In this document: positions 66 to 54,336 of the stretch, in pieces
How the letters are laid out: every line of letters starts with the position of its first letter
How positions within the stretch are numbered: position 1 is the stretch's first letter
DNA from: a virus
Taxonomy: Duplodnaviria > Caudoviricetes
Length of the DNA stretch: 56,306 nucleotides
IMG/VR virus record: IMGVR_UViG_3300037478_000259
Span: 1-56,306 of that record
Direction: 5' to 3' (one strand)
Position numbers and translations under genes: made by a program
The notes under the pieces: model-generated
What the model saw: the letters and a program-made list of their open reading frames with translations, nothing else
What the model was told of the DNA's origin: nothing
Databases searched by the model: none

Positions 66-356
66 GTGGACATCCGTAAATCGGTGTTGGCCGATTTGGC
101 GGGTCTGCCGGCTGCGCTACGCAACGGTTCACTGGCGGCATCGGCGCTGACGTTAGCTGAGTTGATCCCGGAGTCGGCACCCAGGGATGCAGCGTCCCTG
201 GTGCGCGAGCTTCGGCAGACCATGGCCGAGCTGAGGTCTAGCGCGGCGCAGGTGCCGGAGGAGGTGGACCCGGTTGACGAACTTGCTCGCCGTCGCGCCG
301 CCCGCCGCTCGGCCAAGGTATCTACACATGCCGACGGGGATCAGCTCGGCAGCTGA
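66..356 (+). CDS. terS: Terminase small subunit (type A)
   Basis: Directly upstream of and overlapping TerL; C-terminal DPVDELARRRAARR typical of actinophage TerS. Confidence 0.75.
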   Translation: MDIRKSVLADLAGLPAALRNGSLAASALTLAELIPESAPRDAASLVRELRQTMAELRSSAAQVPEEVDPVDELARRRAARRSAKVSTHADGDQLGS

Positions 357-1752
357 GGATGTGATCGGGTTAGCCGATAGTGTCAGCCTGGACTTGGATG
401 GCGACCAGCGGATGGTGCTGGCGGGGGCGCTGACCGAGCGGCTGGATGGCATGTGGGCCGCGAACCAGGTTGGGTTCATTGAGCCACGTCAGAATGGGAA
501 GACCCAGACTCTCGCAGCCGACGCCCTTGGTTCGCTGTACGTGGTGAAGCTAAAACTGGTGATGTGGACCGCACACCGGTTCTCCACGGCCATCGAAGCC
601 TGGCGGCTGATGCGGGACATTGTGACCAACTGGGATCATCTGCGTCGACGGGTCCGCGGTGTCCGTCGGACAACCTGGGGTGGCGGGGAGATCGAGTTAC
701 TCGACGGCAACCGGGTCCTGTTCGGGTCGCGGTCTGCTGGTGCGTCGGGGCGAGGGTTCTCGCTTGAGAAGCTGTATCTGGATGAGGCGTTCGACCTGAC
801 CGACGATGACCTGGCGGCGCTGCTGCCGGCGTTGTCGGCTCGGCCGAATCATCAGGTGTGGTATGCCAGCTCGGCGCCGAAGCCGCACAGCGAGGTGTTG
901 CGCAGGGTCTGCCGCGCGGGCCGCCGGGGCGCGCCGGGGATGGCCTACGTTGAGTTCTGCGCGGCCGACGATGCGGCCAGCGATGACCCGGTTGCGTGGG
1001 CCGAGGCGAACCCGGCCTTCCCGCAGAGGATTACCGACGAGACTATTCGTGGGGAACTCGGCTCTATGTCGGATGAGGATTTCCGGCGCGAGCGGTTGGG
1101 CATATGGAATCCTGATCTTGACGAGTTGTATCGGATCATTCCTACCGAGTTGTGGCAGTCGCTGGCAGACCCGGAGGCCGAGCGGCCGGAGACGGTGGCG
1201 TTCGCGCTGGTCGTCAACCGAGACCGGACCCGGACGGCGATCGGGTACGCCGGGCGCCGCGGCGACGGGTTGATGCAGGTTGGCCTGTCGGATTGGATGC
1301 CGGGCACGTCGCAGGCGGTTGCGCGGCTGGTGGAGTTGCGGGATCGGTGGAACCCGGTCGGGTTCGCGGTGGCCACCAAGAGTGAGAGCCTGTTGCTCGA
1401 TCTGGAGAAGGCCGAGTTCACCGTGCCGGATGATCCTGACGAGCCGCAGCGGGGGGATCTGGCCGTGGTGGGTTCGGCTCAGGATGCAGCAGCCTACGGC
1501 GTATTCGTGGACATGGCCCGCGGCGATCTCCAGGGTGAGGAGCGGGTCGATCTGCTCCGGCATGCCGATGATGCGCCGGTGTCTACGGCTTTGGCGCAGG
1601 CGAGGACGCGGTCGGTGGCTGGCGGTTCGGCATGGGACGACAAGGCCAGCGAGGTGGCGCCGCTGCGGGCGGTGTGCCACGCGCTGTGGTTGCACGAGGC
1701 GTGGGCGCATCTGGTGCAGGCCGATTACGACCCGCTGGCCAACATCTACTAG
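274..1752 (+). CDS. terL: Terminase large subunit (type A); start uncertain
   Basis: Walker A PRQNGKT, Walker B LYLDEA, motif III YASSA, WAEANPA, FRRERLG. Confidence 0.92.
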   Translation: MTNLLAVAPPAARPRYLHMPTGISSAAEDVIGLADSVSLDLDGDQRMVLAGALTERLDGMWAANQVGFIEPRQNGKTQTLAADALGSLYVVKLKLVMWTAHRFSTAIEAWRLMRDIVTNWDHLRRRVRGVRRTTWGGGEIELLDGNRVLFGSRSAGASGRGFSLEKLYLDEAFDLTDDDLAALLPALSARPNHQVWYASSAPKPHSEVLRRVCRAGRRGAPGMAYVEFCAADDAASDDPVAWAEANPAFPQRITDETIRGELGSMSDEDFRRERLGIWNPDLDELYRIIPTELWQSLADPEAERPETVAFALVVNRDRTRTAIGYAGRRGDGLMQVGLSDWMPGTSQAVARLVELRDRWNPVGFAVATKSESLLLDLEKAEFTVPDDPDEPQRGDLAVVGSAQDAAAYGVFVDMARGDLQGEERVDLLRHADDAPVSTALAQARTRSVAGGSAWDDKASEVAPLRAVCHALWLHEAWAHLVQADYDPLANIY

Positions 1753-1755
1753 GGG

Positions 1756-2037
1756 GTGCCGATGTCCACGTTCGTGCATGGCATTCCCCGGGCCCGCCAG
1801 GTAACTCGTGCCCGCCGCCGGCTACTGCCGGCGGCAGCCGCGGCCGCCGGGCATGTGCTGCGGCTGTCGGTGCAGGTCGGTGCGCAGTTGCCGGGGTTGG
1901 CTGGTGCCGGCGCGATCTGCTACGGGGCGTGGCTGGCATGGGCTCCACTTGGGTTCGCGACGGCCGGCGCGTTCCTGCTGTTGGTTGACCGCCGGTCGGC
2001 GGCCGAGCCGGCTGAGCCGGGGGGTGTCGCGCGGTGA
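1756..2037 (+). CDS. Small membrane protein between TerL and portal
   Basis: Hydrophobic C-terminal half; homologous ORF at 54340..54621. Confidence 0.75.
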   Translation: MPMSTFVHGIPRARQVTRARRRLLPAAAAAAGHVLRLSVQVGAQLPGLAGAGAICYGAWLAWAPLGFATAGAFLLLVDRRSAAEPAEPGGVAR

Positions 2038-3257
2038 GTGTGTTCTTCCGCGCCCGGACCCGGCCGCGCGCGCCGGAGCAGCGCGCCGGCTGGCCGGTGA
2101 ACCAGTTGTCGCAAGCTCTGCTCTCCCTGACCCGGCAGCAGTTCAACGAGGTTGACCTTTCAACAGCCGAGTCGAGCCTGCAGTCGGTGGCGGTTCGTTC
2201 CGCGGTGGACCTGATCGCGTCGATCGGCTCTGAGCTTCCAGCGGACGTGTTCCGCGGCAAAGGGTCGACCCGGCAGGAGCTGCCGATGCCCGGCTGGCTA
2301 CAGGACCCGGACGGGTCCGACCAGGGCCTGGAGGACTGGTGCTACCGGGTGCTCGTGTCCTGGCTGCTGCGGGGCAACTTGTATGGGGACGTCCTGGAGC
2401 GCGGCCCGGCGCAGATGCTCAAGCAGGTGGACATCTTCCATCCTGACCGGGTGCACCCGTTGATCGAGGACGGCGAGGTGAAGTGGCTGCACCAGGGCCG
2501 GGAAGTTCCGACTAACCGGATGCTGCACCGCCGGGTCAACCCGGTGCCGGGTTGCCTGCTCGGCCTGTCGCCGGTGGCATATCACGCGTGGACGATCGGC
2601 CTGAACTTGACGACCACAAGGTTCGGCCTGCAGTGGTTTCAGGACGGCGCCCACCCGGGCGGGGTGTTGAGGAACACCGAGGTTGACTTGTCGAAGCCGG
2701 GTGTGGCGGAGACGGCCAAGGACCGGTTCATGGCCGCGCTGCGCGGCAGCCGCGAGCCGCTGGTGTTGGGCAAGGGTTGGGAGTGGCAGCAGATCCAACT
2801 CAACCCGGACGAGTCGCAGTTCCTGGAGACACAGGGTTTCACCGCCGCTGAGTCGGCCCGGATCTTCGGGCCGGGGATCGCGGAGATCCTCGGCTACGGC
2901 ACCAAGGGCAGCTCGTTGACCTACAGCAACCTCATCGACCGTGACCTGCACGTCCTCAAGTACGCGCTGAACAAGTGGCTACGCCGGCTGGAGCGGTTGC
3001 TGAGCATGTTCCTGCCGCGGCCGCAGTACGTGCGGTTGAACCGGGATGCGCTGCTGGAGACGGACACCCTGCGCCGCTACCAGGCGTACCAGATCGCCCT
3101 GAACAACAGGTTCAAGGTCGTCAATGAGATCCGCGACAAGGAAGAGCTGCCGCCGGTCGACTGGGGTGACGAGCCGAACCCGACACCGGGTGCCGCTCCG
3201 GCCCCGGCGCCGAGCGACGAGCCGCCGGGCGAGCCTGAGGAAGACGACGACGAGTGA
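2034..3257 (+). CDS. Portal protein (HK97-like)
   Basis: LLRGNLYG, GLSPV, F..GAHPGGVL, SQFLET, NEIRDKEELPP motifs; position. Confidence 0.95.
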   Translation: MSVFFRARTRPRAPEQRAGWPVNQLSQALLSLTRQQFNEVDLSTAESSLQSVAVRSAVDLIASIGSELPADVFRGKGSTRQELPMPGWLQDPDGSDQGLEDWCYRVLVSWLLRGNLYGDVLERGPAQMLKQVDIFHPDRVHPLIEDGEVKWLHQGREVPTNRMLHRRVNPVPGCLLGLSPVAYHAWTIGLNLTTTRFGLQWFQDGAHPGGVLRNTEVDLSKPGVAETAKDRFMAALRGSREPLVLGKGWEWQQIQLNPDESQFLETQGFTAAESARIFGPGIAEILGYGTKGSSLTYSNLIDRDLHVLKYALNKWLRRLERLLSMFLPRPQYVRLNRDALLETDTLRRYQAYQIALNNRFKVVNEIRDKEELPPVDWGDEPNPTPGAAPAPAPSDEPPGEPEEDDDE

Positions 3258-3419
3258 TCGCCGGACGGGGAGTCGAACCCCGCGGCACTGTCGCAACGAC
3301 TGGTACCAGCCACTGCTCAGCCCGCCAGCGGGTCGGAAGTGGGTCCGTCGACCCCCCGCCGTTCACCGCTGTGGATGGTCCCGCCGATACCACTTCGCGG
3401 CAACCACTCACGTCCAGCA
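3258..3419 (-). ncRNA. Putative tRNA-like structured RNA (acceptor stem + T-arm + long internal helices)
   Basis: Minus strand: 5' UGCUGGA pairs with 3' UCCGGCG; T-arm CGGGG-UUCGACU-CCCCG; 10-bp helix UGGUAUCGGC/GCUGGUACCA; G-U pairs work only on the minus strand. Confidence 0.65.
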
Positions 3420-3433
3420 TACGAGGAGGACAA

Positions 3434-4276
3434 GTGATGCGCGCGATGCGTGGCCTGTATGTGATCCGCGGTGGTGGCCCGGCATCACAACTGAACACCC
3501 GACAGGTTCGAGCCGACGAACCCGAGGCCGCAGCCCCGGCCGACGGGCGAGTCGGCACGCTGGTCGTCGACTTCTCCCGATTCGACACCTGGTACGAGAT
3601 CGACTCGTTCTGGGAGGGCCGGTTCATGGAGCAGGTCAAGCGTGGGTCGTTCAAGAAGACGATGAAGGAGAACGGGTCCAACGTCAAGGTCCTGTTCAAC
3701 CACGGCTTCGACATGTTCCTTGACCAGAAGATGCTCAGCGTCCCCGAGGTCCTGGAGGAGCGTGAGAACTTCGCGCACCTGGAGGGGCCGCTGTTCCGCG
3801 GCACCCCGGAGCTGATCGTCGAAGGCCTGCGCGCCGGCGCCTACGGCTCGAGCTTCATGTTCGAGGTGCTGGCCGAGAAGTGGGACCGGGAGGCGGACAA
3901 GTCGGAGGGCAACCCGGACGGCCTGCCTGAGCGGACGATCACCCAGGTCCGACTGTTCGAGGCTGGCCCGGTGACGTGGCCGGCGAACCCGGACGCAACC
4001 GCCGGGCTGCGCTCGGGCACCGACTGGTGGGCCGAGCAGATACAGAAGCGTGATCAGGACCGCTACGACGAGCTTGTCCGCTCGTTCGCAGCGTTCCGGG
4101 CCCTGCACGGGCTCAGCACCCCCACGGGGGCCGCTGCCCGGCCGGGGTCCAAGCCGGAAGCGCCGGCATCCGACATCGGGTCGGACCGCCACGTCGACGG
4201 GACGGCGGCAGCACGCCGCCTTCGCCTGCAGCAACTGCAGGGAGTCGACACGCGGCGGAAGGTTCCGTCGCATTAG
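3434..4276 (+). CDS. Prohead (capsid maturation) protease, HK97 family
   Basis: GAGGAGG RBS before GTG 3434/ATG 3437; LFNHG, GSSF, EAGPVTWPANPDA motifs. Confidence 0.92.
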   Translation: MMRAMRGLYVIRGGGPASQLNTRQVRADEPEAAAPADGRVGTLVVDFSRFDTWYEIDSFWEGRFMEQVKRGSFKKTMKENGSNVKVLFNHGFDMFLDQKMLSVPEVLEERENFAHLEGPLFRGTPELIVEGLRAGAYGSSFMFEVLAEKWDREADKSEGNPDGLPERTITQVRLFEAGPVTWPANPDATAGLRSGTDWWAEQIQKRDQDRYDELVRSFAAFRALHGLSTPTGAAARPGSKPEAPASDIGSDRHVDGTAAARRLRLQQLQGVDTRRKVPSH

Positions 4277-4293
4277 CGGGTTGGAGAACCCCG

Positions 4294-5736
4294 ATGTCAG
4301 TGAAGGTCCAGTTCCGCCTTGCGGAGCTTTCGATGGAGGACGCCGAGAAGCGGCTCACCGAGATCGAAGCAGAGATGAAGGAGATCAACGACGAGGCCGG
4401 CGACGGTGACCTCGACGACGAGCAGCGTGCCACCTGGGATGAGCTCGGCGTCGAGCACGACGAGCTGGCGCTGTCCACCCGCAAGGCCAAGCGGGCGCAG
4501 CGGCTGCAGGACGCCCGGTCGAAGTACCAGAGCCTGCAGGTCGGCACGAAGCGTGAGGACCCGTGGGACGGGGATGTGCGGATCGTGCCCGAGCAGCAGG
4601 CTCTGACCCGGGCGCGCAACATCCTGGACGACCGGGAGCTCGGCGGGCATCTGCGCTCGGATCAGAAGGAGCATCTGGAGAAGCTGTTGCGTACGCGCAA
4701 CGCGAACCTGGATGGTGACCTGCTGGCCCGGCATGTGATCGCCACCCAGCACCCGTCGTACCGGTCGGCGTTCCAGAAGTATGCGTCCGGCTCGCACGCG
4801 TATACCCAGGAGGAGGCTCGGGCGATCGAGGTGGTGCGGCATCTGAACCGTGCTGCGTCGCTGTCCGACACCGCCGGCGGGTTCGCAGTTCCGGTGCTGA
4901 TCGACCCGACGATCATCATGACCGCGCAGGGGTCGACGAACGACATCCTGCGTCTGGCCAGGGTGGAGACCATCACCACCGACGTGTGGAAGGGTGTCAG
5001 CTCGGCCGGGGTGTCGTGGAAGTTCGACACCGAGGCGGCGGCGGCCACGGACAACGCGCCGACGGTCGCGCAGCCGACGGTGACCACGAGGCGGGCTGAC
5101 GGGTTCATCCCGTTCTCGATCGAGATCGGGATGGACTGGCCAGGCTTCGCCGAGTCCATGTCGGGCTTGCTCGCCGAGGGTTACGACGAGTTGCTCGCCG
5201 AGAAGCTCACCACGGGTACGTCGGGCAGCACTGAGCCGACCGGTCTGATCACCCGGCTGGACGCGACCACCACCATCGAGGTGGAGTTGACGACTGCTTC
5301 GACGATCGTGGCTGCGGACATCTACGGTCTGTGGGCGGCGCTGCCGCAGCGGTTCCGCCGGGCCGCGAACTGTGCCTGGATGTCGAGCACCGACGTGCAG
5401 AACACGATCCGGCAGTTGGGTACTCTCGACCCGAACTTCTCCGTGGACATCACCCAAGAGGCCATTCCGAGGATGTTCGGCCGGCAGTACCCGATGAACG
5501 ACTACATGAACGATCTCCCCGCCTCGGGCACCGGCACCCAGCCGTTGCTCGTCGTCGGCGACTTCAGAGGGTATGTGGTCGCACAGCGGGCCGGGATGAT
5601 GGTCGAGTTCATCCCGATGTTGTTCGACACCACCAACAACCGGCCCACCGGCCAGCGCGGCTGGTTTGCCTGGGCGCGGATCGGCGCCGACGTGGTGAAT
5701 ACGGCGGGGTTCCGACTGCTCACCAACAAGGCCTGA
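4294..5736 (+). CDS. Major capsid protein (HK97 fold, N-terminal delta domain)
   Basis: Coiled-coil N-terminus, AGGFAVP, GDFRGYVV, GWFAWARIGADVVN. Confidence 0.93.
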   Translation: MSVKVQFRLAELSMEDAEKRLTEIEAEMKEINDEAGDGDLDDEQRATWDELGVEHDELALSTRKAKRAQRLQDARSKYQSLQVGTKREDPWDGDVRIVPEQQALTRARNILDDRELGGHLRSDQKEHLEKLLRTRNANLDGDLLARHVIATQHPSYRSAFQKYASGSHAYTQEEARAIEVVRHLNRAASLSDTAGGFAVPVLIDPTIIMTAQGSTNDILRLARVETITTDVWKGVSSAGVSWKFDTEAAAATDNAPTVAQPTVTTRRADGFIPFSIEIGMDWPGFAESMSGLLAEGYDELLAEKLTTGTSGSTEPTGLITRLDATTTIEVELTTASTIVAADIYGLWAALPQRFRRAANCAWMSSTDVQNTIRQLGTLDPNFSVDITQEAIPRMFGRQYPMNDYMNDLPASGTGTQPLLVVGDFRGYVVAQRAGMMVEFIPMLFDTTNNRPTGQRGWFAWARIGADVVNTAGFRLLTNKA

Positions 5737-5740
5737 TCTC

Positions 5741-6040
5741 ATGATCTGGCATAAGCCCAAGTGGATCGACAGCGAGACCACGCTGGGTGCATCTGTGGCT
5801 GAAGAGGTGACGGCAAGCCGATACTGCCTTCAGGTGTCCGGCCCGGTGAACGCGGTTGGTTACATCCAAGGATCACTTGACGGCGACAAGTGGGTGATTC
5901 TGGCCAGGGCCGAAGTCACCAATGGGAACTTGCTCACCGAGCTTGTCTGGGTCGAAGGCAATCCCGTCAAGCACATCCGGGCAGTTCTTGCCGCCAATGG
6001 TGGTGGGTCCGTAACCATCAGTGTGCTCGCAACCGACTGA
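5741..6040 (+). CDS. Hypothetical beta-rich protein (possible capsid accessory)
   Basis: Intact ORF immediately after the capsid gene. Confidence 0.6.
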   Translation: MIWHKPKWIDSETTLGASVAEEVTASRYCLQVSGPVNAVGYIQGSLDGDKWVILARAEVTNGNLLTELVWVEGNPVKHIRAVLAANGGGSVTISVLATD

Positions 6041-6044
6041 AATC

Positions 6045-6083
6045 TCACGTGGCGGGTGTGCTCACCTCACACCCGCCATGTGA
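6045..6083 (+). terminator. Long hairpin (terminator or mRNA-stabilising)
   Basis: TCACGTGGCGGGTGTG-CTCACCT-CACACCCGCCATGTGA; no U-tract. Confidence 0.5.
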
Positions 6084-6117
6084 CCAACCACCACCTCCAA
6101 GGTGAGAGGAGATCGCG

Positions 6118-6462
6118 ATGAAGTACAGCAAGATTGCCGGTGTGACCAGGTGGTCCGGTGGGACCACACTGTTGCGTAAGGGCCAGTCTGCCGACGAGGA
6201 CCACGGTCTGGTCAAGGAACGCCCGGACCTGTTCACTGACGTGGCACCGGGTGCGTCGCTGGCGGCTGGCCACAAGGTTCCACCGCCGGCGGTGGAGCGG
6301 GCCACTCGCGCGCCGGGGGAGGTTCGGGTCACCGAGTCGCCGTCGACGAGGGCGATCCGGGAGTGGGCTGTCGCCGCCGGGTTCGAGGTGGCGGCGCGTG
6401 GGAAGTTGTCGCCTGAGGTGGTCGAGGCGTACAACGCTGCGCATGAGCCCGTCGATGGGTGA
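6118..6462 (+). CDS. Protein with C-terminal Lsr2-type DNA-binding domain
   Basis: AIREWAVAAGFEVAARGKLSPEVVEAYNAAH matches the Lsr2 C-terminal pattern. Confidence 0.85.
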   Translation: MKYSKIAGVTRWSGGTTLLRKGQSADEDHGLVKERPDLFTDVAPGASLAAGHKVPPPAVERATRAPGEVRVTESPSTRAIREWAVAAGFEVAARGKLSPEVVEAYNAAHEPVDG

Positions 6463-7213
6463 GCCGGCGGTGGCTGGGAACGGCAGGGTACAGATCGCGT
6501 ACCTGCACCGGCACAACGTCAGCCACAGTTGGCACGAGAGCATGATGCGGCTGATCGGCTACGACGCGGCGAACCACTGCCGGATCGTTGACACCGCCGG
6601 CCCGTTCATGATCTCGACCGATGCGTCTGGTCTGGTCGCCGCGCGTAACACGGGTGTACAGCGGTTCTTGGACGAGACCGACCACGAATGGCTGTGGTAC
6701 GTCGACACCGACATGGGGTTTCTGCCGGACACGATCGACCGGCTCGTCGACGCAGCCGATCCGGTTGAGCGTCCGGTTGTCGGCGGGTTGTGCTTCGCGC
6801 TGCGCGAGGTTTGCTACGACGGGTACGGCGGCCGGCGGGTGATGCCCGCCCCGACGCTCTATGTGCCGGCGAAAACCCCGGAAGGGCACACCGGGTTCAC
6901 CACCCGGTGGGATGTGCCGCCGAACACGCTGCTGCAGGTGGCCGGCACCGGCACCGCGTGTCTGCTGATGCACCGGGGGGCGTTGGAGAAGCTGCGGGCT
7001 GAGTACGGCGACGCCTGGTTCGACCGGGTGCGCTACGAGGACGGGCAGCCGATCTCCGAGGACCTGTCGTTCTGCGCCCGGCTGATCCAGCAAGGTGTCC
7101 CTCTGTTCGTCCACACCGGGGTTCTGACCACGCATCACAAGCAGTTCTGGGTGGGTGTGGAGGACTACACCCCGCCGAACGTGATGGCAGCCGATGTTCG
7201 CGACTCCGGTTGA
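6455..7213 (+). CDS. Glycosyltransferase (GT-A/GT2-like)
   Basis: ARN..VQRFL, WLWYVDTDM (DxD), GTGTACLLMHR, SEDLSFC. Confidence 0.85.
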   Translation: MGEPAVAGNGRVQIAYLHRHNVSHSWHESMMRLIGYDAANHCRIVDTAGPFMISTDASGLVAARNTGVQRFLDETDHEWLWYVDTDMGFLPDTIDRLVDAADPVERPVVGGLCFALREVCYDGYGGRRVMPAPTLYVPAKTPEGHTGFTTRWDVPPNTLLQVAGTGTACLLMHRGALEKLRAEYGDAWFDRVRYEDGQPISEDLSFCARLIQQGVPLFVHTGVLTTHHKQFWVGVEDYTPPNVMAADVRDSG

Positions 7214-8142
7214 CGTCGGATGGCGCCGCCGTGAAGCTGCTGCTGCTCGGCACGCCCGACTACGGCCGCGACTGCTGGCATGACGACCTGGCCGACGAGG
7301 CCGCCGTGCTCGGCTGGCAGGTGGACTACATCGCCGCCCGTGACCGGCCGGTCGATGACGTGGTGCGGCAGGCCAAGGGTGCGGATCTGCTGATTTGGGC
7401 GCGCACCCACTTGCATTCCCCGGCCGGTGACGTGGACGGCATGCTCCGGCGGATCGAGGACGCGGGCACTGCCACGGTCGGGCTGCACCTGGACTTGTAC
7501 TGGGGTGTGCCTAGCCGGGAACAGAAGATCGGGAATCATCCGTGGTGGTCTTGCCAGTGGGTGTACACGGCCGACGGTGGGCCGCGGCCGTGGCACACCC
7601 GGGGTGTCAACCACCGGTGGTGCCCACCCGCGTTGGGCGGTAGGCATCTGGGCCGGGTCAAGCCTGAGGGTGAGGCCCGGTACGTGTTCACCGGCGGGGC
7701 GATGCCTGTGCACGGCGAACATCGGCTGCAGTTGTTGGCGTGGGCGCATGCCCGCTGGGGTGACCGGTTCGCCGTCTACGGTGAGCCGCCGGAGACCGCC
7801 GTCTACGGTCAGCGGCTGTCCGGCGTCGTGTCGTATGCGCATGCTGTGCTGGGGGATTCGGCGCCGGCCGCCTGCTACTGGTCGGACCGGGTGGTGCGGA
7901 TCCTGGGTCGTGGCGGGGTGTTGGCGCATCCGCGGGTGGCCGGCATGGCCGAGCAGGGGTTCACCGACGAGACGATGGTCCCGTTCGGCCGGTACGACTT
8001 CCTTCGGCTCGGGTCACGGCTGGATTCGTTGATGAAGCGGCAGCGGACAGCCATCCGCGACGCCGCGGTTGCCGTGGTCGAGTCGCGGCATCTGTGGCGG
8101 CACCGGCTCCAGTCGATCGCCCGGGAGGTGGGCTGTGGCTGA
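7210..8142 (+). CDS. Glycosyltransferase-like protein (GT-B, CgeB/Glyco_trans_1_2-like C-terminus)
   Basis: FTGG, YWSDRV..ILGRGG, HLWRHRL end motif. Confidence 0.7.
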   Translation: MTSDGAAVKLLLLGTPDYGRDCWHDDLADEAAVLGWQVDYIAARDRPVDDVVRQAKGADLLIWARTHLHSPAGDVDGMLRRIEDAGTATVGLHLDLYWGVPSREQKIGNHPWWSCQWVYTADGGPRPWHTRGVNHRWCPPALGGRHLGRVKPEGEARYVFTGGAMPVHGEHRLQLLAWAHARWGDRFAVYGEPPETAVYGQRLSGVVSYAHAVLGDSAPAACYWSDRVVRILGRGGVLAHPRVAGMAEQGFTDETMVPFGRYDFLRLGSRLDSLMKRQRTAIRDAAVAVVESRHLWRHRLQSIAREVGCG

Positions 8143-22813: not shown

Positions 22814-23359
22814 GTGACCCGGATTTACTACGACTGCGAGTTTGTCGAGGATGGGGCGACGATCGACCTCGTGAGCATCGGCATGGTCGCCGAGGACGGC
22901 CGCGAGCTCTACGCCGTCTCTTCGGAGTTCAACACGGGGAATCTGCTCCGCAATCCGTGGCTGGTCGAGAACGTGTGGCCATCCCTGCCGCTCAAACAGC
23001 ACCCGCCCGGCTTCAAGTGCCGGTGCCGCCACGGCCATCTCGACACCGACCACCCGGACGTACGGCCCCGCGCGCAGATCGCCAGGGCGATCGCGGAGTT
23101 CATCCTGGGGACCCCGGACGTGGAACTGTGGGCGTGGTACGGCGCCTACGACCATGTTGTGCTCTGCCAGCTGTGGGGGGCGATGGTCAACCTGCCGGAG
23201 GGGGTGCCGATGTATACCCACGACCTGAAGCAGGAGTGCGACCGGCTCGGCAACCCGAGCATGCCCGAGCAGACCGAAGGCCAGCACAACGCGTTGGCCG
23301 ATGCCCGGCACGTCAAGGTGATGGCGGAGTTCCTGGCCGCCCTATCCGACAAGGAGTAA
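22814..23359 (+). CDS. 3'-5' exonuclease, DEDD family (Rv2179c-like)
   Basis: YYDCEF, LVSIG, WYGAYD, HNALADARH. Confidence 0.85.
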   Translation: MTRIYYDCEFVEDGATIDLVSIGMVAEDGRELYAVSSEFNTGNLLRNPWLVENVWPSLPLKQHPPGFKCRCRHGHLDTDHPDVRPRAQIARAIAEFILGTPDVELWAWYGAYDHVVLCQLWGAMVNLPEGVPMYTHDLKQECDRLGNPSMPEQTEGQHNALADARHVKVMAEFLAALSDKE

Positions 23360-23362
23360 GAG

Positions 23363-23539
23363 ATGGCACGTGTACGGAAGCTGGTAGCGGCGATCCTGGG
23401 CGGGTTGACCGCCATAGCGGTGGTCGGCGTCGCCCACCTGGCCGGGGTGGAGCTGGCACCGGAGGTGGCCGGGCTGGCGGCGGTGGTCGCCTCGGCGCTC
23501 GCCACGTATGTCTCGCCGGCCAACGAGCTGCCGACGTGA
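23363..23539 (+). CDS. Putative holin (58 aa; not in supplied ORF track)
   Basis: AAGGAG RBS; MARVRKLVAAILGGLTAIAVVG...VVASALATYVSPANELPT with two TM helices. Confidence 0.65.
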   Translation: MARVRKLVAAILGGLTAIAVVGVAHLAGVELAPEVAGLAAVVASALATYVSPANELPT

Positions 23540-23814
23540 GCCGACAGGATCCGGGCTGGCTGCGGGTCTACTGGCCGGTCCTTCTGTTGGCTGGGGTGCC
23601 TATTCTCTTCGGGGTCCCCCAGGGACTAGCACTGGTCTGGCCGGGCGTGGGCGGCACGGCCAGCGAGTGGACCCGGGACGTGCTCGGGGTTACCGACGGG
23701 CCTACGGCCCGCTTCTGGGTGTTCCTGGCGCTCTGGTCGGCGCTGGCCGTCTGGTTTCCGATCCACGTGCTCAAGGGATGGTGGTACGAGCGTCCGAGAC
23801 GCCGCAACGAATGA
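23536..23814 (+). CDS. Membrane protein
   Basis: GTGA overlap with the holin; two hydrophobic segments, basic C-terminus. Confidence 0.6.
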   Translation: MSRQDPGWLRVYWPVLLLAGVPILFGVPQGLALVWPGVGGTASEWTRDVLGVTDGPTARFWVFLALWSALAVWFPIHVLKGWWYERPRRRNE

Positions 23815-23892
23815 CGTGGCCGTGGGAGCGTGCCCAGAGTCGGAAACCCGACAAGATCGACTAGACGTTACTCGGGTAGGTGAAGTGGGTGG

Positions 23893-23934
23893 GAGCCCGG
23901 CTGGGAGGGAATGGTGGCCCTCCCGGCCGGGCTC
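23893..23934 (+). terminator. Strong hairpin, probable end of late operon
   Basis: GAGCCCGGCTGGGAGGG-AATGGTGG-CCCTCCCGGCCGGGCTC. Confidence 0.55.
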
Positions 23935-23980
23935 GTTCGCTGCGATAATGGAGGCTCAAGCCAAAACGAGAAGAGGCACC

Positions 23981-24148
23981 ATGCGTATCAAGATCATGAC
24001 TGCGGTTGCGGTGGGACTGCTCGCCGCCGGCGCGTTCGCGGCACCCGCCGCGGCCAACCCGGGCCCGGGCCAGAGTTTCGCCTGCGCCCCAGGGCAGCAG
24101 GGCAACCCGGAGCCGGCCTTCCGACCGGCGGCGTGCGACAAGCCGTAG
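23981..24148 (+). CDS. Small secreted peptide (55 aa)
   Basis: Sec-type signal MRIKIMTAVAVGLLAAGAFAAPAAA; mature ~30 aa with two Cys; GATAAT -10-like box at 23944. Confidence 0.7.
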   Translation: MRIKIMTAVAVGLLAAGAFAAPAAANPGPGQSFACAPGQQGNPEPAFRPAACDKP

Positions 24149-24163
24149 TACCATCACGGTAGC

Positions 24164-24272
24164 GTCATCCCGGTCTCCGTGACCGGGCTCCATTGCGGTA
24201 CGCACGCCCACCCGCCCTGCGACGGATTCAGCGTGGGTCATCCCGGTCTCCATGACGGGGCTCCATCGAAGC
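24164..24272 (+). CRISPR. Mini-CRISPR array (two 36-nt repeats, one 37-nt spacer), type I-G-like, no cas genes
   Basis: R1 24164-24199 GTCATCCCGGTCTCCGTGACCGGGCTCCATTGCGGT; R2 24237-24272 GTCATCCCGGTCTCCATGACGGGGCTCCATCGAAGC; internal stem CCCGGTC/GACCGGG. Confidence 0.75.
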
Positions 24273-24313
24273 CAGCCCGTAAGCTGGCATAGCCTGCTGT
24301 TCACGCGGGACAA

Positions 24314-24347
24314 AGCCCGGCCGAGGGAGACCTCGGCCGGGCTGTTT
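24314..24347. terminator. Probable bidirectional intrinsic terminator
   Basis: 13-bp perfect stem AGCCCGGCCGAGG-GAGA-CCTCGGCCGGGCT, flanked by AA and GTTT, between convergent units. Confidence 0.8.
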
Positions 24348-24360
24348 GCTGTGCGCTGGG

Positions 24361-24828
24361 TCAGCTGCGGCACTTCTCCGCGGCCTCGTCGTACGCCGCG
24401 TGGGCCGTGTCCATGTCGACCGCGACTGACTCCATCTCCACCGTCAGACCCTCCAGGTCGTCGGTGATGCTGTCGAGCTCGGTCGCATCCCACACGACCG
24501 CTGCCGCGATACCCTCACCGGCCAGGGTGAGCGCCTCAGCGTTGAGGGTGAACCCGCGGCTGGACAGGACGAACAGGTCCTCGGCTGCGGTGAGCGCGTC
24601 TTCGCACGCCGCCGGGGTGGTGGTGACGATGGTGCTGGTGCCAGGGCTGGCGTCGGTGGTCGGGGTGTCGCCGCCGCCAGCGGCCACACCGATGACGAAG
24701 GCGAACAGTCCGGTCCCGACGGCGACCAAGATCGTCCGGCCGCGCTTGGCCTTCGGTGCCGGGGTGGGCGGGGGTGGCTGGGTCATGTCGTAAGGCTCAG
24801 GCTGGGGCTGCATGTCGATGGTGCTCAT
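24361..24828 (-). CDS. Membrane-anchored hypothetical protein
   Basis: Pro-rich N-terminus, one TM helix, acidic helical domain with two Cys. Confidence 0.7.
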   Translation of the reverse strand: MSTIDMQPQPEPYDMTQPPPPTPAPKAKRGRTILVAVGTGLFAFVIGVAAGGGDTPTTDASPGTSTIVTTTPAACEDALTAAEDLFVLSSRGFTLNAEALTLAGEGIAAAVVWDATELDSITDDLEGLTVEMESVAVDMDTAHAAYDEAAEKCRS

Positions 24829-24933
24829 GATTCACTCATTCTTGCCGGGGGGTGTCGCCCTCGGCCGGTCGGGTGGCGGGTCTGTTCCGCCACTCGGCCC
24901 CCGCCCGCCGGAGCGGGTTGGGACCGGGCAGCG

Positions 24934-25164
24934 TCAGGGCCTACGGGCAAACTCCCGGCCGATCTGCCTGCGCAGCCGGTGGCGGGCGCGCCAGAGCGCC
25001 CACGCCAGACTGGCCTTGGTCAGCACTTCACCGGAATCCAGCAACCGATCGTGGTAGTACCCCTCCCAAAGCCAGCCGTTTCCGTGCCGGTACACCTCGA
25101 AGTCGATGTCGTCGATGCAGGCCGGCACCCAGCCGTGCTCAGGGTCGTACCTGCTAACGGTCAT
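24934..25164 (-). CDS. Hypothetical protein
   Basis: GGAGG RBS; member of leftward small-gene operon. Confidence 0.6.
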   Translation of the reverse strand: MTVSRYDPEHGWVPACIDDIDFEVYRHGNGWLWEGYYHDRLLDSGEVLTKASLAWALWRARHRLRRQIGREFARRP

Positions 25165-25288
25165 CGGGACCTCCGGTGTGGATGGGTGATGTGGTGGCCA
25201 TGATCCTCACTCCTCACAGGTAGGTGGTGCAGGGCGGTTGGGACCGGGCAGCGTCGTCCCGGTAAGTCAGACCAGCCGATCTGCTCGG

Positions 25289-25525
25289 TCAGCTGGTCGG
25301 GACACAGGGGTTCATTGGGTTGGTGGTGTCGTTGGGCCGGTAGATGGCCATCTGTTCGGCGGCGATGACGACTAGGTTGACGTCGGACAGCACCTCGGCA
25401 GCTCGTTCTTTCGTCTTGTGCACCAACTCGGGGGTTGTGTACAGCGGTACCCGGAGGATCAGTGTGTCACCGGGTCGGATGACCATTCCTTGCTCGATCT
25501 GTACCGGGATGCCTTGCTTGCTCAT
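25289..25525 (-). CDS. Hypothetical protein (alternative start 25582)
   Basis: GGAGG RBS before MSKQG. Confidence 0.55.
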   Translation of the reverse strand: MSKQGIPVQIEQGMVIRPGDTLILRVPLYTTPELVHKTKERAAEVLSDVNLVVIAAEQMAIYRPNDTTNPMNPCVPTS

Positions 25526-25646
25526 GTGTTCCTCCGTGTCGGTGATCGGTTGGGGTGTGGCTGGTTTTGTCTTCGAGCTCATCTATGGTGGGGGCGGTCC
25601 TCAATCCTCGTAGGTTGGGTGGGTGCAAGGGGCGGACCGGGCAGCG

Positions 25647-25790
25647 TCAGCGGGTCTGCAGGTCCAGGGCGGACGCCAGCCGCAGCATCGCCCGCAGACG
25701 GCGACGGTACGAGCCGTAGTCCTTACGCCAAGCCGAGTCGCCGACCCGGGTGGCCATCTGGCACACGTCCCACACGGTCACAGGTCGCAT
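25647..25790 (-). CDS. Hypothetical 47-aa protein (not in ORF track)
   Basis: GAGGAGTGACCATG junction; MRPVTVWDVCQMATRVG... Confidence 0.55.
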   Translation of the reverse strand: MRPVTVWDVCQMATRVGDSAWRKDYGSYRRRLRAMLRLASALDLQTR

Positions 25791-25792
25791 GG

Positions 25793-26005
25793 TCACTCCT
25801 CACAGATCTGGCACCCGGGAACGGTGCAAAAGTTCAAGGAATCCTGATGGTGGCCCTGGCCCTCTGGCCCGACCCCGGCCGGGTGCCCAAACAGCGCGCG
25901 AGCAACGTTGCAGCCCTGGCAGTGATCCTGCGTGCGGTACTGCGGGTGGTCGGTCGGGAGTGTGCAGGTGTGGTACACGGTTGCGCGCTCTCGGTATTCG
26001 CTCAT
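25793..26005 (-). CDS. Cys/His-rich hypothetical protein
   Basis: GAGGAGTGAGGATCATG junction; ends CEE. Confidence 0.6.
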   Translation of the reverse strand: MSEYRERATVYHTCTLPTDHPQYRTQDHCQGCNVARALFGHPAGVGPEGQGHHQDSLNFCTVPGCQICEE

Positions 26006-42401: not shown

Positions 42402-43963
42402 GACCCCCGACCCAGCGGCCGCGGTGGCGATGCCTGTCCCCCGGCTGCCCCGCCCACACCTGGCAGTGGATACCCGCCCACCTTGACCCGGTGCACGGCG
42501 GCCGGGATGCCATCGAAGCGCACTGGGCGGACGTCCACGGCGACGGCCCTGACCCGCCGTCGGCCGTGCTGGACACGACGCCGGCGAACACGGTGGTGCG
42601 CTGCCCAGCATGCGGGGCCCGGCAGCACACCTGGTCATGGGTAACGGCCGGACGCTGCCGGATCTGCAAGGGCCTGGTCACATGGGCAGAGGAGTCGCAC
42701 CGTGGATGAGCCACACGTGGAGGTTACCCGGTACACCGTCTCGGTGCTGCCGGAAGGCAGCATCAACCGGGGCCACTACGACATCACCGTTGAGCAGCGC
42801 GCGCCCGGCCGGTGGGGAGCCTGCTGGATGGGTCGATGCCTCGGTGCCGATGGTGAGTGGGACTACGAGCCGACGCCATCAAACCTTGAAGACGACTGGC
42901 TGGAGGCCCACCGTTTCGGCCTGGGCAGGGCGCTGCGCCTGGCGAAGCAGGCCGCGCCGGGTATGACCGTCAACGGGATGACCGCGGTGGAGTGCGCGGA
43001 GTGGGAGGCACACCGTGGCTGACACCTTCGATCGTGGAGAGCTGCAAACGTACGAGGTCGTGTGGACCAGCGGCCATACCGAACGGGTGCCGGCACACCA
43101 AGTCAGTTGGACCAACGCGTTGCAAAGGTCGCTGTTCGGCGACAAACCGGCCGTGCCGACACGTATCCGGTTCCACGCCGAGATCGACGGCCAATGGCTG
43201 CTTGTGCTGGACGCGCTGGAGCAGGACATCCGCACCGTCCGGCTCGTCACCCAGGGCGAAGGAGTCCCCCGTGGATGAGTTCGACGAGTTCGTGCTGTTC
43301 GACGACCGCGGGAATGAGCGGCTGGTGTGCCCGGACTGCATAGCCGTGTGCGCACCCGAGACCCCGGTCCGGTGCGACAAGGACTGGTGCTGCTGCGACT
43401 GCAACCAGGACGACCTGGACTGGCAACTAGCCGAGGAGTTGGCCGACCCGGAGTTCGCCGCCGCGTATCGGATGGCGCAGGACCGGGCTGCGGCCGCGCG
43501 CGCCCGGGAGTTGGACGACCGCGGCGACGACCAGCTGGCTGCCATCGCCCGCGACCTCGAGGCGGAGGCCCGGCCGGATGTTACCGCGCTGACCGTGGAG
43601 CGTTTCGGCCGGCCGACACGGGGCGCGGCCTGATGCCGGCCGGGATGGTGCGACCGCGCGGCCCGTACGACAGGTGGCTGGTCGCCGGCACCCTGGTGCG
43701 CGACCGGTATCCGTGCACGTGCAACGGGACGCGGGAGTGCGGCCGGCGGTGCTGGTGCCGGGGACGGCTGGACGCGGCGTCGATGGGCACGGCGTGCTGT
43801 TCGCGGCGGGCTGTGGAGACGGAGGCGAGGCAGGGATGAGCATGGTGAGCGTCCGCCGGCACGACTACCAGCCGGCAACTGGTGGCGGCTGCGTGGTGTG
43901 CCCGCTGCCGGACGACAACGAGATACATCGACCACAACGGACGTGCAGGACGGGGAGGCGGCA

Positions 43964-45247
43964 GTGACCACGAGCACCAAGGGCCTGGCGATCGCGGAGG
44001 TCGTCTGGCGCGAAGACCTGTACCCCCGTCTGGAGACTGACGCACGGAAGGTCGACCAGTACGCCGAAGACCTCACTGTGCTACCACCGATCGAGGTGAA
44101 CCAGCGGAACGAACTGATCGACGGCTGGCACCGGTGGACAGCGCACCGCAAGGCCGGTGCCGAACAGGTACCCGTAGTCGTGACCGAGACGACCAGCGAT
44201 GAGCACCTACTGGAGTTGGCGATCCGGCGTAACGCCAAGCACGGCTTGCAGTTGTCGGCCGAGGACAAGCGGGACATGGCACGGCGGATCTACAACGGCA
44301 CGGCCGAGCGGGACCGTGAGCGGAAGAAGGTCGAGCTTGCGTCGATCTTGTCTGTGAGCGAACGCACGGTGCGCGAGTGGTTGTCCAGAATCGACAAGGA
44401 CGCCAAGACGGCCCGCGACAAGCGCATCTTCGGTATGTGGCTGTCCTGTCATACAGATCAGGAGGCCGCGGATGCCGAGGGGATGGTTCGGAGGACGGTT
44501 GCCGACCTGACAGCCGACTTTGGCGAGATCGGCAAACTTTCCGAATCCGCCAAAGCTGCCGCACAGCACGCCACAGACTTCGACCCGCCGCTGTACAACG
44601 TGTGGAAGCAGCAGACCAAGACGGCCGGCGGCAAGCACTTCGGCAACAGCGAAGTCCGCTGGGTGGACAACCTGCTCTACCTCTACACCAAGCCGTTCGA
44701 CATCGTGGTAGACCCATTCGCCGGCAGCGGGTCCACGGCCGATCTGTGCAAGAAGCGGATGCGCCGGTACTGGGTCAGCGACCGCAAGCCGGCTGTTGGC
44801 CGGGAGGCGGTCATCCGTAAACACGACCTGACCGACGGCCTACCCCGGCTGCCGCGGTGGCAAGACGTCGGGCTGGTGTACCTAGATCCGCCGTACTGGA
44901 AACAGGCCGAGGGACGGTACAGCCAGGACCCGCAAGACTTGGCAAACATGGACCTCCCGCTGTTCACGCAGACGCTGGTCGGGTTGATCCGAGACTTCGC
45001 GAAGAAACTGCCCAAGGGTGCACACATCGCGCTCATCATCCAACCCACGCAGTGGAACGCGCCGGAGCACGAGTTCACCGACCACATCGCGGACACGTTA
45101 CGGCTGGTCAAGCACCCCGTGGCCATGCGCGTCTCGGTGCCGTATGAGTCGCAGCAGTACAACGCGCAACAGGTGGAGTGGGCCAAAGCTAACCGACGGG
45201 TGCTTGTGCTCACACGCGAGATCGTCGTGTGGCGGGTGGAGAAATAG
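43964..45247 (+). CDS. ParB-like domain fused to amino (N6A/N4C) DNA methyltransferase
   Basis: PPIEV...LIDGWHR; HTH VSERTVREW; VDPFAGSGST; YLDPPY. Confidence 0.8.
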   Translation: MTTSTKGLAIAEVVWREDLYPRLETDARKVDQYAEDLTVLPPIEVNQRNELIDGWHRWTAHRKAGAEQVPVVVTETTSDEHLLELAIRRNAKHGLQLSAEDKRDMARRIYNGTAERDRERKKVELASILSVSERTVREWLSRIDKDAKTARDKRIFGMWLSCHTDQEAADAEGMVRRTVADLTADFGEIGKLSESAKAAAQHATDFDPPLYNVWKQQTKTAGGKHFGNSEVRWVDNLLYLYTKPFDIVVDPFAGSGSTADLCKKRMRRYWVSDRKPAVGREAVIRKHDLTDGLPRLPRWQDVGLVYLDPPYWKQAEGRYSQDPQDLANMDLPLFTQTLVGLIRDFAKKLPKGAHIALIIQPTQWNAPEHEFTDHIADTLRLVKHPVAMRVSVPYESQQYNAQQVEWAKANRRVLVLTREIVVWRVEK

Positions 45248-52275: not shown

Positions 52276-52787
52276 TGCCTCGGACCAAGAAGCCTGCCGG
52301 CACGGCGGTTCGCCCCTACAACGGGCGCCGCGCGGATCTGGTGCCGGTGCAGGGTGGCCGCTTCGACCCGCCGGACGGGTTGAGCGAGCAGGCGCGGGTG
52401 CTCTGGGACCTGTACTGGGATGACACCGTGGCGACGGTGATCACCGTCGTCGATCGTGGGTTGTTGACCCGTTGGATCAGCGAGTACGACCGGTATCTGC
52501 GGACGATCGCCGAGGCCGACCAGGAGCCGTTGGTGCGCGGGTCGACCGGTCAGCCGGCGGAGAACCCGCTGTACCGGATTGCCTATCGGGCGCTGGATGC
52601 GGCCGAGCGGTGCGAGCGGCAGATGGGCATCGGCCCGCTGCATCGGTCGAGTCTGGGCATCGCGGTCATCACCGAACGCCGGTCGCTGGCGGACATGAAC
52701 ATCCGTTACGGAGGTGGCGATGACAACCGTCGCCCCGTCGAGGCCGAGGCGCGCACGGACCCGCGGGTCATCGAGGCCGAAGCCTGA
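52275..52787 (+). CDS. terS: Terminase small subunit (type B, P27-like)
   Basis: GSTGQPAENPL...GIGPLHRSSLG. Confidence 0.85.
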   Translation: MPRTKKPAGTAVRPYNGRRADLVPVQGGRFDPPDGLSEQARVLWDLYWDDTVATVITVVDRGLLTRWISEYDRYLRTIAEADQEPLVRGSTGQPAENPLYRIAYRALDAAERCERQMGIGPLHRSSLGIAVITERRSLADMNIRYGGGDDNRRPVEAEARTDPRVIEAEA

Positions 52788-54336
52788 CCCGGGTTGCCAG
52801 GCATGCGGGTGGAAGCCTGAGCCTGGCGCGCTGTGGCCGACCGAGGGTGCGGTGGCGGTGCGGTGGATCGAGGACAACTGCATCTGCGGTGAGGGCGACT
52901 GGTACGGGAAGCTGATGCAGTTGCGCCCGGATCAGAAGCGGTTCCTGTACCGCTGGTACGAGTTCTGCCCGGTCTGCGATCAGTGGCACTACGACGAGGC
53001 GTTGCGAGGTGCGGCGACCGGCGACGGTAAGACCCAGTTCATCGCTGCGATTGTGGTGTTGGAGTTCGCCGGTCCGCCGCAGATCGCGGTGGGTTCGCCG
53101 AACATCCCGATCGCCGCGGCGTCCTTCGAGCAGGCGGACCTGCTGTTCGGTGCGGTGGCCACGATGTGCGGCGGCCGGGACCAGGCTGTCAAGGATGCGC
53201 CGCTGTGCGGGTTTTTCGAGGTCTACGACACGGAGATCACGTTCTCTGATGGCCGGCCGGGGCGCATCTTCCGGGTCGCGGCCGTGGCGGGCACGAACGA
53301 GGGTGGGCTGCCGACCCTGTTCGTGTGCGACGAGCTGCACGAGTGGGGCGAGCCCGGGAGTAAGAAGGCCCGGGTTAAGACGGTGATCGGTAAGTCGACC
53401 CGCAAGCGGCGTACGCGGCGTGGCTGCGGCCGGCAGATCTCGCTGTCGACGGCCGGGTTCGACATCGACACGTCGCTGTTGGGCGATTTGGTGAAGCTGG
53501 GTCGGCGGGTGGAACGTAACCCGTCGGTCTCGCCGCGGTATCTGTTCGACTGGCGTGAGGCCCCGGCTGGGTTGGACTACCGCCGGCCGCGTGACCGGGA
53601 GTTGGCGGTCCGCGCCGCATCAGCGGCCGCGGACGTGTTGTGGTCGGTTGCGGACCGGGTGAACGCCTGGGGTAAGCCGGACATGCCGTCGCACGAGTGG
53701 ATCAGGTACTACGCCAACCGTTGGGTGGACGTGGCCAAGGATTCGTGGTTGAAGGATCACCCGTCGGCGTGGGGCCGGTGCCGTGGCGAGTGGGAGCCGT
53801 CGAACGAGAACCCGTGGCTGCTGGCCGTGGACATGGCGCTCAAGCATGACTCGGTGGCGGTGGATCGGATCGAGCAGCTGCCGGACGGGCGTGCGGCGGT
53901 CACGTCGAAGATTTGGCGGGCTGCCGAGCATGGCGGGCGGATTCCACACGATGACGTGTGGGTGTACATCCGGCAGCGGGCGACCGGGTTGGGCTTCCGC
54001 GGGGTGGTGTACGACCCGCGGTATTTCGAGGTGCCGGCTCGGATGCTTGAGGAACACAACGTTGTGGCGATCGAGTTTGATCAGTCGCCACAGCGGATGG
54101 CGCCGGCGTGTGGGCTGGCGTTCAAGCTGATTGTCGATCAGCAGATCGTGCATGACGGCGACCCGGATCTGGCGGCGCACGTGAAGGCCGCAGTGTCAGT
54201 GCCACAAGAGCGCGGCGGCTTTACGTTGAAGAAGGGCAAGAGCAAGGGCCACATCGACGCTGCGGTGGCGATGTGCATGGGCGTGTGGATTCTCCAGGGA
54301 TTCGCCGACTACGACCCGCTGGCCAACATCTACTAG
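52714..54336 (+). CDS. terL: Terminase large subunit (type B)
   Basis: Walker A ATGDGKT, AASFEQA, Walker B FVCDELH, LSTAG, nuclease AVDMA...YDP...HIDAAVA. Confidence 0.92.
   Translation: MAMTTVAPSRPRRARTRGSSRPKPDPGCQACGWKPEPGALWPTEGAVAVRWIEDNCICGEGDWYGKLMQLRPDQKRFLYRWYEFCPVCDQWHYDEALRGAATGDGKTQFIAAIVVLEFAGPPQIAVGSPNIPIAAASFEQADLLFGAVATMCGGRDQAVKDAPLCGFFEVYDTEITFSDGRPGRIFRVAAVAGTNEGGLPTLFVCDELHEWGEPGSKKARVKTVIGKSTRKRRTRRGCGRQISLSTAGFDIDTSLLGDLVKLGRRVERNPSVSPRYLFDWREAPAGLDYRRPRDRELAVRAASAAADVLWSVADRVNAWGKPDMPSHEWIRYYANRWVDVAKDSWLKDHPSAWGRCRGEWEPSNENPWLLAVDMALKHDSVAVDRIEQLPDGRAAVTSKIWRAAEHGGRIPHDDVWVYIRQRATGLGFRGVVYDPRYFEVPARMLEEHNVVAIEFDQSPQRMAPACGLAFKLIVDQQIVHDGDPDLAAHVKAAVSVPQERGGFTLKKGKSKGHIDAAVAMCMGVWILQGFADYDPLANIY

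Follow-up and report, generated by a model that had tools for sequence, protein, structure and literature searches.

A cas-less mini-CRISPR array in a sediment phage and its probable target, the long allele of a neighboring peptide gene in related phages

[quoted passage not shown] A unit of this kind had been predicted from the sequence at positions 24164-24272 of a phage record, the whole 56,306-base IMG/VR virus contig IMGVR_UViG_3300037478_000259 (linear class, completeness rating 78%), which is called the window in the following. Judged by its sequence, the locus represents a genuine unit of repeat, spacer and repeat that belongs to a family of cellular CRISPR arrays and resides in a cas-less phage, and its assignment to a known kind, the virus-borne mini-CRISPR arrays engaged in inter-virus conflict, is well supported. 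The array lies beside a small gene for a putatively secreted peptide which exists in a short and a long allele. By transcription, processing and interference, which we infer, it probably borrows the CRISPR machinery of the host to exclude competing relatives that possess the long allele.

The mini-arrays of phages and prophages reported by Faure et al. 2019 are leaderless and usually contain a single spacer, as does the present locus, according to the passages of PMC6858448 and PMC7099407 that refer to them. They target adjacent genes of close relatives and not the carrier, which matches the locus point for point. For SPV1 and SPV2, portogloboviruses of Sulfolobales, the relevant sections of PMC6858448 describe one or two spacers, no viral cas genes and host-like repeats, as in the phage. 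Their spacers are likewise directed against close, co-occurring viruses, the target lies near the array, and the orthologous site of the carrier is mutated or deleted. Unlike the phage, SPV1 and SPV2 have an archaeal host and a recognizable leader with a promoter, whereas no leader was recognized here. Moreover, their targeting is reciprocal and was confirmed by polymerase chain reaction, while that of the phage is one-way as sampled and deduced from sequence only. The phage array also differs from SPV1 and SPV2, as far as those sections describe them, in lying directly beside the targeted allele and in partly replacing it. RNA anti-CRISPRs (Racrs), presented by Camara-Wilpert et al. 2023, resemble the locus in being cas-less viral repeat mimics downstream of a possible promoter but are, in the parts of PMC10651486 concerned, solitary repeats without a targeting spacer. 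Among the literature matches listed, no mini-array was found in actinobacteriophages. The present locus would be a case of a phage that turns the adaptive immunity of its host on its own relatives. Its interest lies in the lineage, that of a high-GC phage from sediment, in the allele-versus-allele arrangement and in the fact that all parties occur together in the same samples.

The array and its repeat family

The array consists of three elements, for which cellular counterparts were found on two metagenomic contigs (L090 and L088):

24164-24199, plus strand: CRISPR repeat R1; hairpin intact, 3' end ATTGCGGT; identical to the L090/L088 repeat at 35 of 36 positions
24200-24236, plus strand: single spacer of 37 nucleotides (nt), antisense to the long allele of the neighboring peptide gene in related phages
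24237-24272, plus strand: degenerate terminal repeat R2, identical to the array consensus at 31 of 36 positions, with a weakened stem and a divergent end of six nt

The 36-nt repeats and the 37-nt spacer of the original prediction were confirmed. Within their first 30 positions, R1 and R2 are identical at 28, and a search with the 30-mer, allowing up to three mismatches, returned exactly these two sites and no third copy in the window. None of 100 dinucleotide shuffles of the window reproduced any 30-mer site. The predicted stem of seven base pairs (bp) is perfect in R1, where it encloses a loop of 5 nt and folds at -13.8 kcal/mol; in R2, which has a single mismatch inside the stem, the value is -9.5 kcal/mol. 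R2 retains 26 of its first 28 nt, the scrambling being confined to the last six. A transfer RNA (tRNA) or phage attachment site (attP) origin of the repeats was rejected, as ARAGORN detected no tRNA or transfer-messenger RNA gene in the window and a 23-base core was absent from species genomes apart from one chance match.

A metagenome scan of 241 million records, in which two copies of the 17-nt hairpin core were required 40-65 nt apart, returned four stretches, of which two are real arrays (L090 and L088) and two are unrelated (L087 and L089). L090 contains at least seven repeats, six near-perfect ones of the form GTCAT/CCCCGGTCTCCGTGACCGGGCTCCATTGCGGC and, at the 3' end of the array, a degenerate seventh, with spacers of 38, 35, 36, 36 and 35 nt. 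In L088, three perfect repeats are followed by a fourth that is truncated at the contig end, and the spacers measure 38 and 36 nt. The agreement of R1 with the 36-nt cellular repeat (35/36) includes 18 of the 19 positions outside the required search pattern, and the sole difference is the last base. R2 looks like a degenerate terminal repeat. A degenerate repeat at the 3' end is common to L090 and the phage array and speaks, like the plus-strand match to CRISPR-DR20 described below, for the orientation assigned here. The suggestion that two different 3' ends might suit different Cas variants is not supported and has become unnecessary, because the last six nt of R2, which lie at the recombination junction, would be an unused next handle that a single-spacer CRISPR RNA (crRNA) does not need, and because cellular arrays end degenerate as well.

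Two observations concern the other sequences returned by the scan. L087 (2223-2370) and L089 (2197-2344) contain 77-nt tandem units with the same 17-nt hairpin core (CCGGTCTCCGTGACCGG, then ACAAAA), which adjoin a cysteine-codon-rich repetitive coding region and bear no likeness to the CRISPR repeat outside the core. In L088, the first repeat is preceded, at a distance of about 15 nt, by the end of a gene for a DDE transposase (273-1574, minus strand; DDE_Tnp_1 and an associated N-terminal domain). Apparently, an insertion sequence replaced the leader side of this array.

Rfam gave no match in the window at gathering thresholds. Under permissive conditions, CRISPR-DR20 (RF01333) was the only CRISPR family to match, on the plus strand, where R1 scored 19.3 bits and the L090 repeats 20.5 against a gathering threshold of 42, so that the locus resembles this family without being a member. 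CRISPR-DR20 is a 36-nt model in which a hairpin lies upstream of a consensus end, ...CAUUGCGGc, like that of the cellular repeat (the 3' end CAUUGCGGC is identical). Its last nine nt match R1 at eight positions, but it differs from the repeat of the locus in the stem and the 5' part.

Scans of IMG/VR with 28-base and 19-base patterns of the repeat, which may leave out the record of the window itself, revealed no other carrier, and a three-copy scan of IMG/VR for arrays ending CATTGCGGC returned three matches, all of them plain coding-type tandem repeats. Positions 22-490 of L090 had no match in the plasmid and phage collections. Two cellular spacers, searched as 27-mers in IMG/VR, gave no match each, and nine cellular spacers and a partial one, compared with the window and the fetched loci, gave short chance matches only, among the matches listed. 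The repeat sequence was not found in the literature, supplementary tables as a possible home of repeat lists lying outside this search. Its 11-nt 3' end occurred, among the matches listed by title and abstract, in unrelated non-CRISPR papers only, and the main text of a paper on CRISPR in Mycobacteriaceae (PMC10333696) contains none of four repeat 3'-end motifs.

That the phage is cas-less was borne out as far as the record goes: there was no Cas1 match in the window and no cas family among the 35 open reading frames (ORFs) scanned against PHROGs or Pfam, a set smaller than the full complement of ORFs. The neighbors of the cellular array L090 are a gene of the APH family and an unassigned ORF, and that of L088 is the DDE transposase. 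As to the subtype, the label "type I-G-like" is plausible and no more than compatible with the repeat length of 36 nt, the spacer lengths of 35-38 nt and the TTG flank of the target described below. The sequence is compatible with a type I system, possibly I-G. An upstream TTN (here TTG) and spacers of about 36 bp are both traits of the I-G system of Geobacter, and neither is exclusive to I-G. Other type I subtypes also use TTN-like motifs adjacent to the protospacer (PAMs). For the I-U/I-G system of Geobacter sulfurreducens, the excerpt of PMC6547450 gives a predominant spacer length of 36 bp and a TTN PAM, TTG included, that licenses interference. By contrast, the I-G system of Bifidobacterium lactis uses a TAN PAM, with a crRNA that has an 8-nt 5' handle (PMC9335239, in excerpt), and a PAM is therefore not diagnostic of I-G. 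In Actinobacteria, I-G loci are described for Mycobacteriaceae in the consulted part of PMC10333696. An I-G array is expected beside cas3, cas8u, cas7, cas5/6 and a cas4-cas1 fusion, and the phage locus differs from the Geobacter and B. lactis systems in having no linked cas genes.

Target allele, mosaic locus and co-occurrence

Two further elements are needed to understand the position of the array and its target:

23981-24148, plus strand: small secreted-peptide gene, short allele; 55 amino acids with a signal-like hydrophobic N-terminus; without the protospacer
24273-24308, plus strand: long-allele 3' end and downstream remnant, which aligns to the ORF end ...CCAGCCGTAAGCTGGCA... of the related phage L084

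Spacer matches were searched for in an unbiased way by blastn-short, followed by a codon-degenerate scan of IMG/VR. In the window and 90 fetched loci, blastn-short yielded one significant non-self match (27/30, E = 2e-4), which is located in L004 on the opposite strand, inside the L004 version of the small peptide gene. The codon-degenerate scan added one contig, L091. When the homologous sites were aligned without gaps, the number of mismatches to the spacer was three in L091, six in L004 and L092 (which are the same contig), ten in L086 and twelve in L084. For comparison, the best sites of 20 shuffled spacers in the same 746,893 bases had 11-14 mismatches (best 26/37), and two non-homologous sites of the true spacer with 11-12 mismatches are at chance level. 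Two of the three differences in L091 and four of the six in L004 are synonymous third-codon differences. This is how a spacer taken from an unsampled allele of the peptide gene should look, to judge by the sequences. The spacer corresponds to the residues TLNPSQGGW(V/A)C of the long peptide form. All homologous sites, including those with the closest matches to the spacer (L091, 34/37; L004, 31/37), are preceded on the spacer-sense strand by the 5' flank GTTG and thus show TTG on the type I PAM side, in agreement with the TTN-type PAM that had been anticipated.

No other site in the window matches the spacer with 13 or fewer mismatches, which corroborates the earlier failure to find one by eye. 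The carrier therefore does not target itself. With protospacers in relatives and none in the carrier, targeting of a rival element, one of the functions originally considered, is favored by the data, while repression of a gene of the phage itself, another of them, received no support.

The short allele of the peptide gene is present in the window and in L085, the long allele in L084, L086, L004 and L091. The peptide has no Pfam or PHROG family. Both forms have two cysteines; the mature peptide comprises approximately 30 residues in the short and 47 residues in the long form. Among near-identical phages the gene is dimorphic, like a variable accessory gene between two hairpins. In L004 (5269-6551) and L086 (4804-6253), the peptide gene is separated from the upstream hairpin by an additional 1.3-1.4 kb, and since two relatives are enlarged at this point, the slot upstream of the gene is a cargo-exchange hotspot.

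The flanks of the array are shared by L084, L085 and L086 at 87-98% identity, whereas the array itself is absent from these phages. Allowing up to seven mismatches, the repeat occurs in none of 83 related viral loci and, allowing up to three, in none of five whole relative records. The array is thus a presence/absence polymorphism among near-identical phages. Downstream of it, the homology with L084 starts again at 24272, precisely where R2 ends, whereas that with L085 and L086 resumes at 24309. L085 has the same stop codon and TACCAT as the window, and then 27 other bases lead straight to the terminator. Because positions 24273-24308 are homologous to the end of the long gene in L084, the locus is a mosaic of a short-allele gene, the array and a long-allele remnant. 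The array seems to have taken, in part, the place of the target-bearing 3' half of the long allele, a remnant of which survives downstream of R2.

Parts of the window were detected in seven sediment metagenome runs, one of which contains 97% of the sampled window words and may be the sample from which the record derives. Four runs (X1-X4) were compared as contigs over positions 23600-24900. Depths were taken per contig and summed, and no quantitative ranking of the runs was drawn from them. In X1, R1 is connected with phage position 23823 by one unitig, and a second unitig leads from R1 through spacer and R2 to the terminator at 24343. With depths of 321 and 356, these unitigs are close to the flanks (381-414), and they show no differences from the window. 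Array-less joints were found in X3 (24156 to 24294 and 24151 to 24283) and in X4 (24155 to 24309), the latter with the 27 bases of the L085 type. Contigs that match the spacer and extend on both sides into long-allele sequence occurred in X1 (24203-24236) and X4 (24200-24236), where the match is preceded by ...GTTGTTG. In the bins of R1, the summed depth in X3 and X4 reached 958-7520 compared to about 40-110 beside them, which is approximately 30-70 times the depth of the flanks. Seven unitigs from X2-X4 that run from repeat to repeat have different inserts, 35-38 letters long; all of these inserts begin with C, the base that ends the cellular repeat. Arrays with many other spacers are therefore present in the same sediments. 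The sediment runs thus contain the carrier together with array-less siblings, rivals that bear the target and cellular arrays. From this co-occurrence, it may be supposed that the cellular arrays belong to the phage's own host. A further joint in X4 (23934 to 24164), on a low-depth contig, connects the end of the upstream hairpin with the start of R1. It was set aside as its shorter side of 24 letters is too short to interpret, and it may reflect either chance or another arrangement in which an array is present.

Borrowed interference and competing explanations

In the proposed mechanism, the array would be transcribed rightward together with the peptide gene, also from the prophage. A repeat-specific endonuclease of the host would cut R1 and leave a 5' handle (AUUGCGGU, if it is 8 nt long), and a cut or trimming in or near R2 would then give a single crRNA to be loaded into a type I effector of the host. 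The crRNA would guide this effector to the long allele of the adjacent gene in incoming relatives, beside the 5'-TTG flank, so that a carrier with the short allele would be spared and superinfecting long-allele relatives would be attacked. The pattern of conservation in the array fits such a mechanism, because an intact R1 would supply both the 5' handle and the processing for one crRNA.

Any recombinant with both the array and the long allele would become its own target, and tight linkage between array and immune allele could prevent such recombinants. A tentative extension, to which we give somewhat less than even credence, is that array and short allele form a linked cassette of a weapon and an immune allele, the first example in an actinophage and possibly of type I-G. 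If this is true, recombinants would destroy themselves and the haplotype of short allele and array could be driven through a mixed phage population; the cassette would also explain the proximity of mini-arrays to their targets that was noted for archaeal viruses. Whether mini-arrays structure phage populations, and why they are placed beside their targets, becomes testable at this locus, which moreover ties a hostless viral contig to organisms with a specific CRISPR repeat.

Several points weigh against exclusion of relatives by borrowed interference. The last base of R1 is T where nine of nine cellular repeats have C, and the stem of R2 is weakened. No leader was recognized, and none is available for comparison since the cellular leader ends are missing, L090 running off the contig and L088 abutting the transposase. 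No cas genes were found on the array contigs L090 and L088, which are 2.1-2.5 kb long, and the exact 23-base core gave one match in 185,579 species genomes, a chance match in a coding gene without flanking repeats. No perfect protospacer was found in IMG/VR, the best one (L091) being mismatched at spacer position 7. The seed of type I effectors includes this position. Hence, the sampled relatives may escape interference or trigger only priming. The TTG flank was seen in a single family of protospacers, within coding sequence that is conserved. A reciprocal array with the same repeat was not found in five relatives. Within IMG/VR, the array is known from a single viral contig, which offers no sign that it persists or that spacers are exchanged. 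Finally, in the Logan unitigs the join from phage to spacer runs through a 30-nt overlap inside R1. Since such a short-k join across R1 is ambiguous, the contiguity of exactly one spacer depends on the IMG/VR assembly.

Some of these points would also be expected of an inactive passenger or scar, i.e. a fragment of a host array that was gained by recombination, after the host had acquired a rival-matching spacer, and that is now decaying unused. The degeneracy of R2, the deviating last base of R1, the lack of a recognizable leader and the single array-bearing contig suit this explanation, as does the mosaic of short and long alleles, which shows that recombination occurred at the locus. Furthermore, the excerpt of PMC6858448 describes the mini-arrays of phages as leaderless and considers recombination with host arrays as their possible origin. 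However, decay is found only where a single-spacer crRNA has no need of the sequence, given that R1 agrees at 35/36 positions and has a perfect hairpin and R2 agrees at 26/28. The array is also oriented in sense between a conserved upstream block and a terminator, the carrier has the non-target allele, and in X1, where the carrier is the dominant variant, the unitig with the spacer has about the depth of the phage flanks. An idle passenger is therefore regarded as unlikely.

Borrowed interference is likewise preferred to an RNA anti-CRISPR, in which a repeat-like RNA would act as a decoy, binding the processing or backbone Cas proteins of the host and blocking immunity against the carrier. Viral repeat mimics can inhibit CRISPR-Cas (PMC10651486, in excerpt), R2 is a variant repeat, and host arrays co-occur with the phage. 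On the other hand, Racrs are solitary repeat units in the passages seen of that article, whereas the locus has two repeats 37 nt apart around a spacer, and the pipeline described there sets a locus aside as a mini-array if a partial match lies within 100 bp of a full one. Nor would a decoy require a spacer of canonical length with a target in rivals well above chance. The decoy considered in the original prediction is thus not needed to account for a spacer with a specific target, and we deem it highly improbable.

Even less can be said for a homology handle, by which the repeats would serve recombination with the host array (integration or spacer swap) and not targeting; although a transposase abuts the array of L088, the phage has its own tyrosine integrase, the homology extends over only 36 nt, and the rival-specific spacer is left unexplained, so that this proposal has very little in its favor. 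Equally implausible is a chimera of a host array fragment and phage sequence joined by the assembler, which the break of unitigs inside R1, at branching host-array paths, and the strain mixing evident where the contig runs into a variant of its own start with 93% identity might suggest, since the X1 unitigs link 23823 to R1 and R1-spacer-R2 to 24343 at depths of 321/356 vs 381-414 without differences and since no other context was seen for R2 and the remnant of the long allele.

The surrounding unit and the phage

The following features were identified around the array and elsewhere in the window:

23893-23934, plus strand: hairpin closing the rightward structural/late gene block; inverted repeat I5 with 17-nt arms, 94% complementary
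23941-23949, plus strand: candidate extended -10, TG-n-GATAAT; block identical in L084 and L085
24271-24288, plus strand: hairpin after R2, seen in the fold and partly formed by the long-allele remnant
24314-24343, plus strand: intrinsic terminator with a 13-pair stem (11 GC) and the T-rich tail GTTTGCTGTG; conserved in L084-L086 and L091
30094-30906, minus strand: tyrosine integrase (PHROG 1e-40; Pfam Phage_integrase with 49 bits vs a 27.1-bit cut-off)

The hairpin and the terminator that had been predicted downstream of the array were found at 24271-24288 and 24314-24343. The terminator is common to the array unit and the convergent leftward gene 24361-24828 on the minus strand, and the hairpin at 23893-23934 is conserved in relatives. 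The array is hence placed in sense direction inside a compact, hairpin-bounded unit where rightward and leftward transcription converge. A consensus scan for Escherichia coli-type sigma-70 promoters returned no promoter-like site in 23700-24500, the candidate at 23941-23949 included. The sequence TACCAT, proposed as a -10, is indeed present at 24149-24154, but a role specific to the array was rejected, as the array-less L085 also has it and the sigma-70 scan recorded no site there.

The G+C content of the window is about 68%. Genes for the large terminase, portal, major head, tape-measure and tail fibre-like proteins are located on the plus strand up to about 23.5 kb, and leftward genes follow this block. 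Other phage genes with matches encode an Ant-like antirepressor, a RecE-like exonuclease and a RusA-like resolvase. Because of the tyrosine integrase and the antirepressor, the virus is probably a temperate phage. In tblastn, the terminase matched 851 phage records, every match showing less than 60% identity (best approximately 31%), and the matches listed by organism name were almost all actinobacteriophages; the host is probably an actinobacterium. A megablast of positions 23000-26000 against the phage database gave no match, and a sensitive blastn of 24140-24300 against the same database gave chance matches only (22 nt or less, or E of at least 2).

The end of the contig (54304-56306) repeats its start (1720-3728), in the portal region, at 93% identity. 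There are two large-terminase genes (274-1752 and 52714-54336), which have only a short C-terminal stretch in common. The record thus seems to run around a unit of approximately 52.6 kb and to join two strain variants with different terminase modules. In an ORF at 43898-45247, an N6/N4 DNA methylase domain is fused to a ParB N-terminal-like domain, a common phage fusion of the anti-restriction type.

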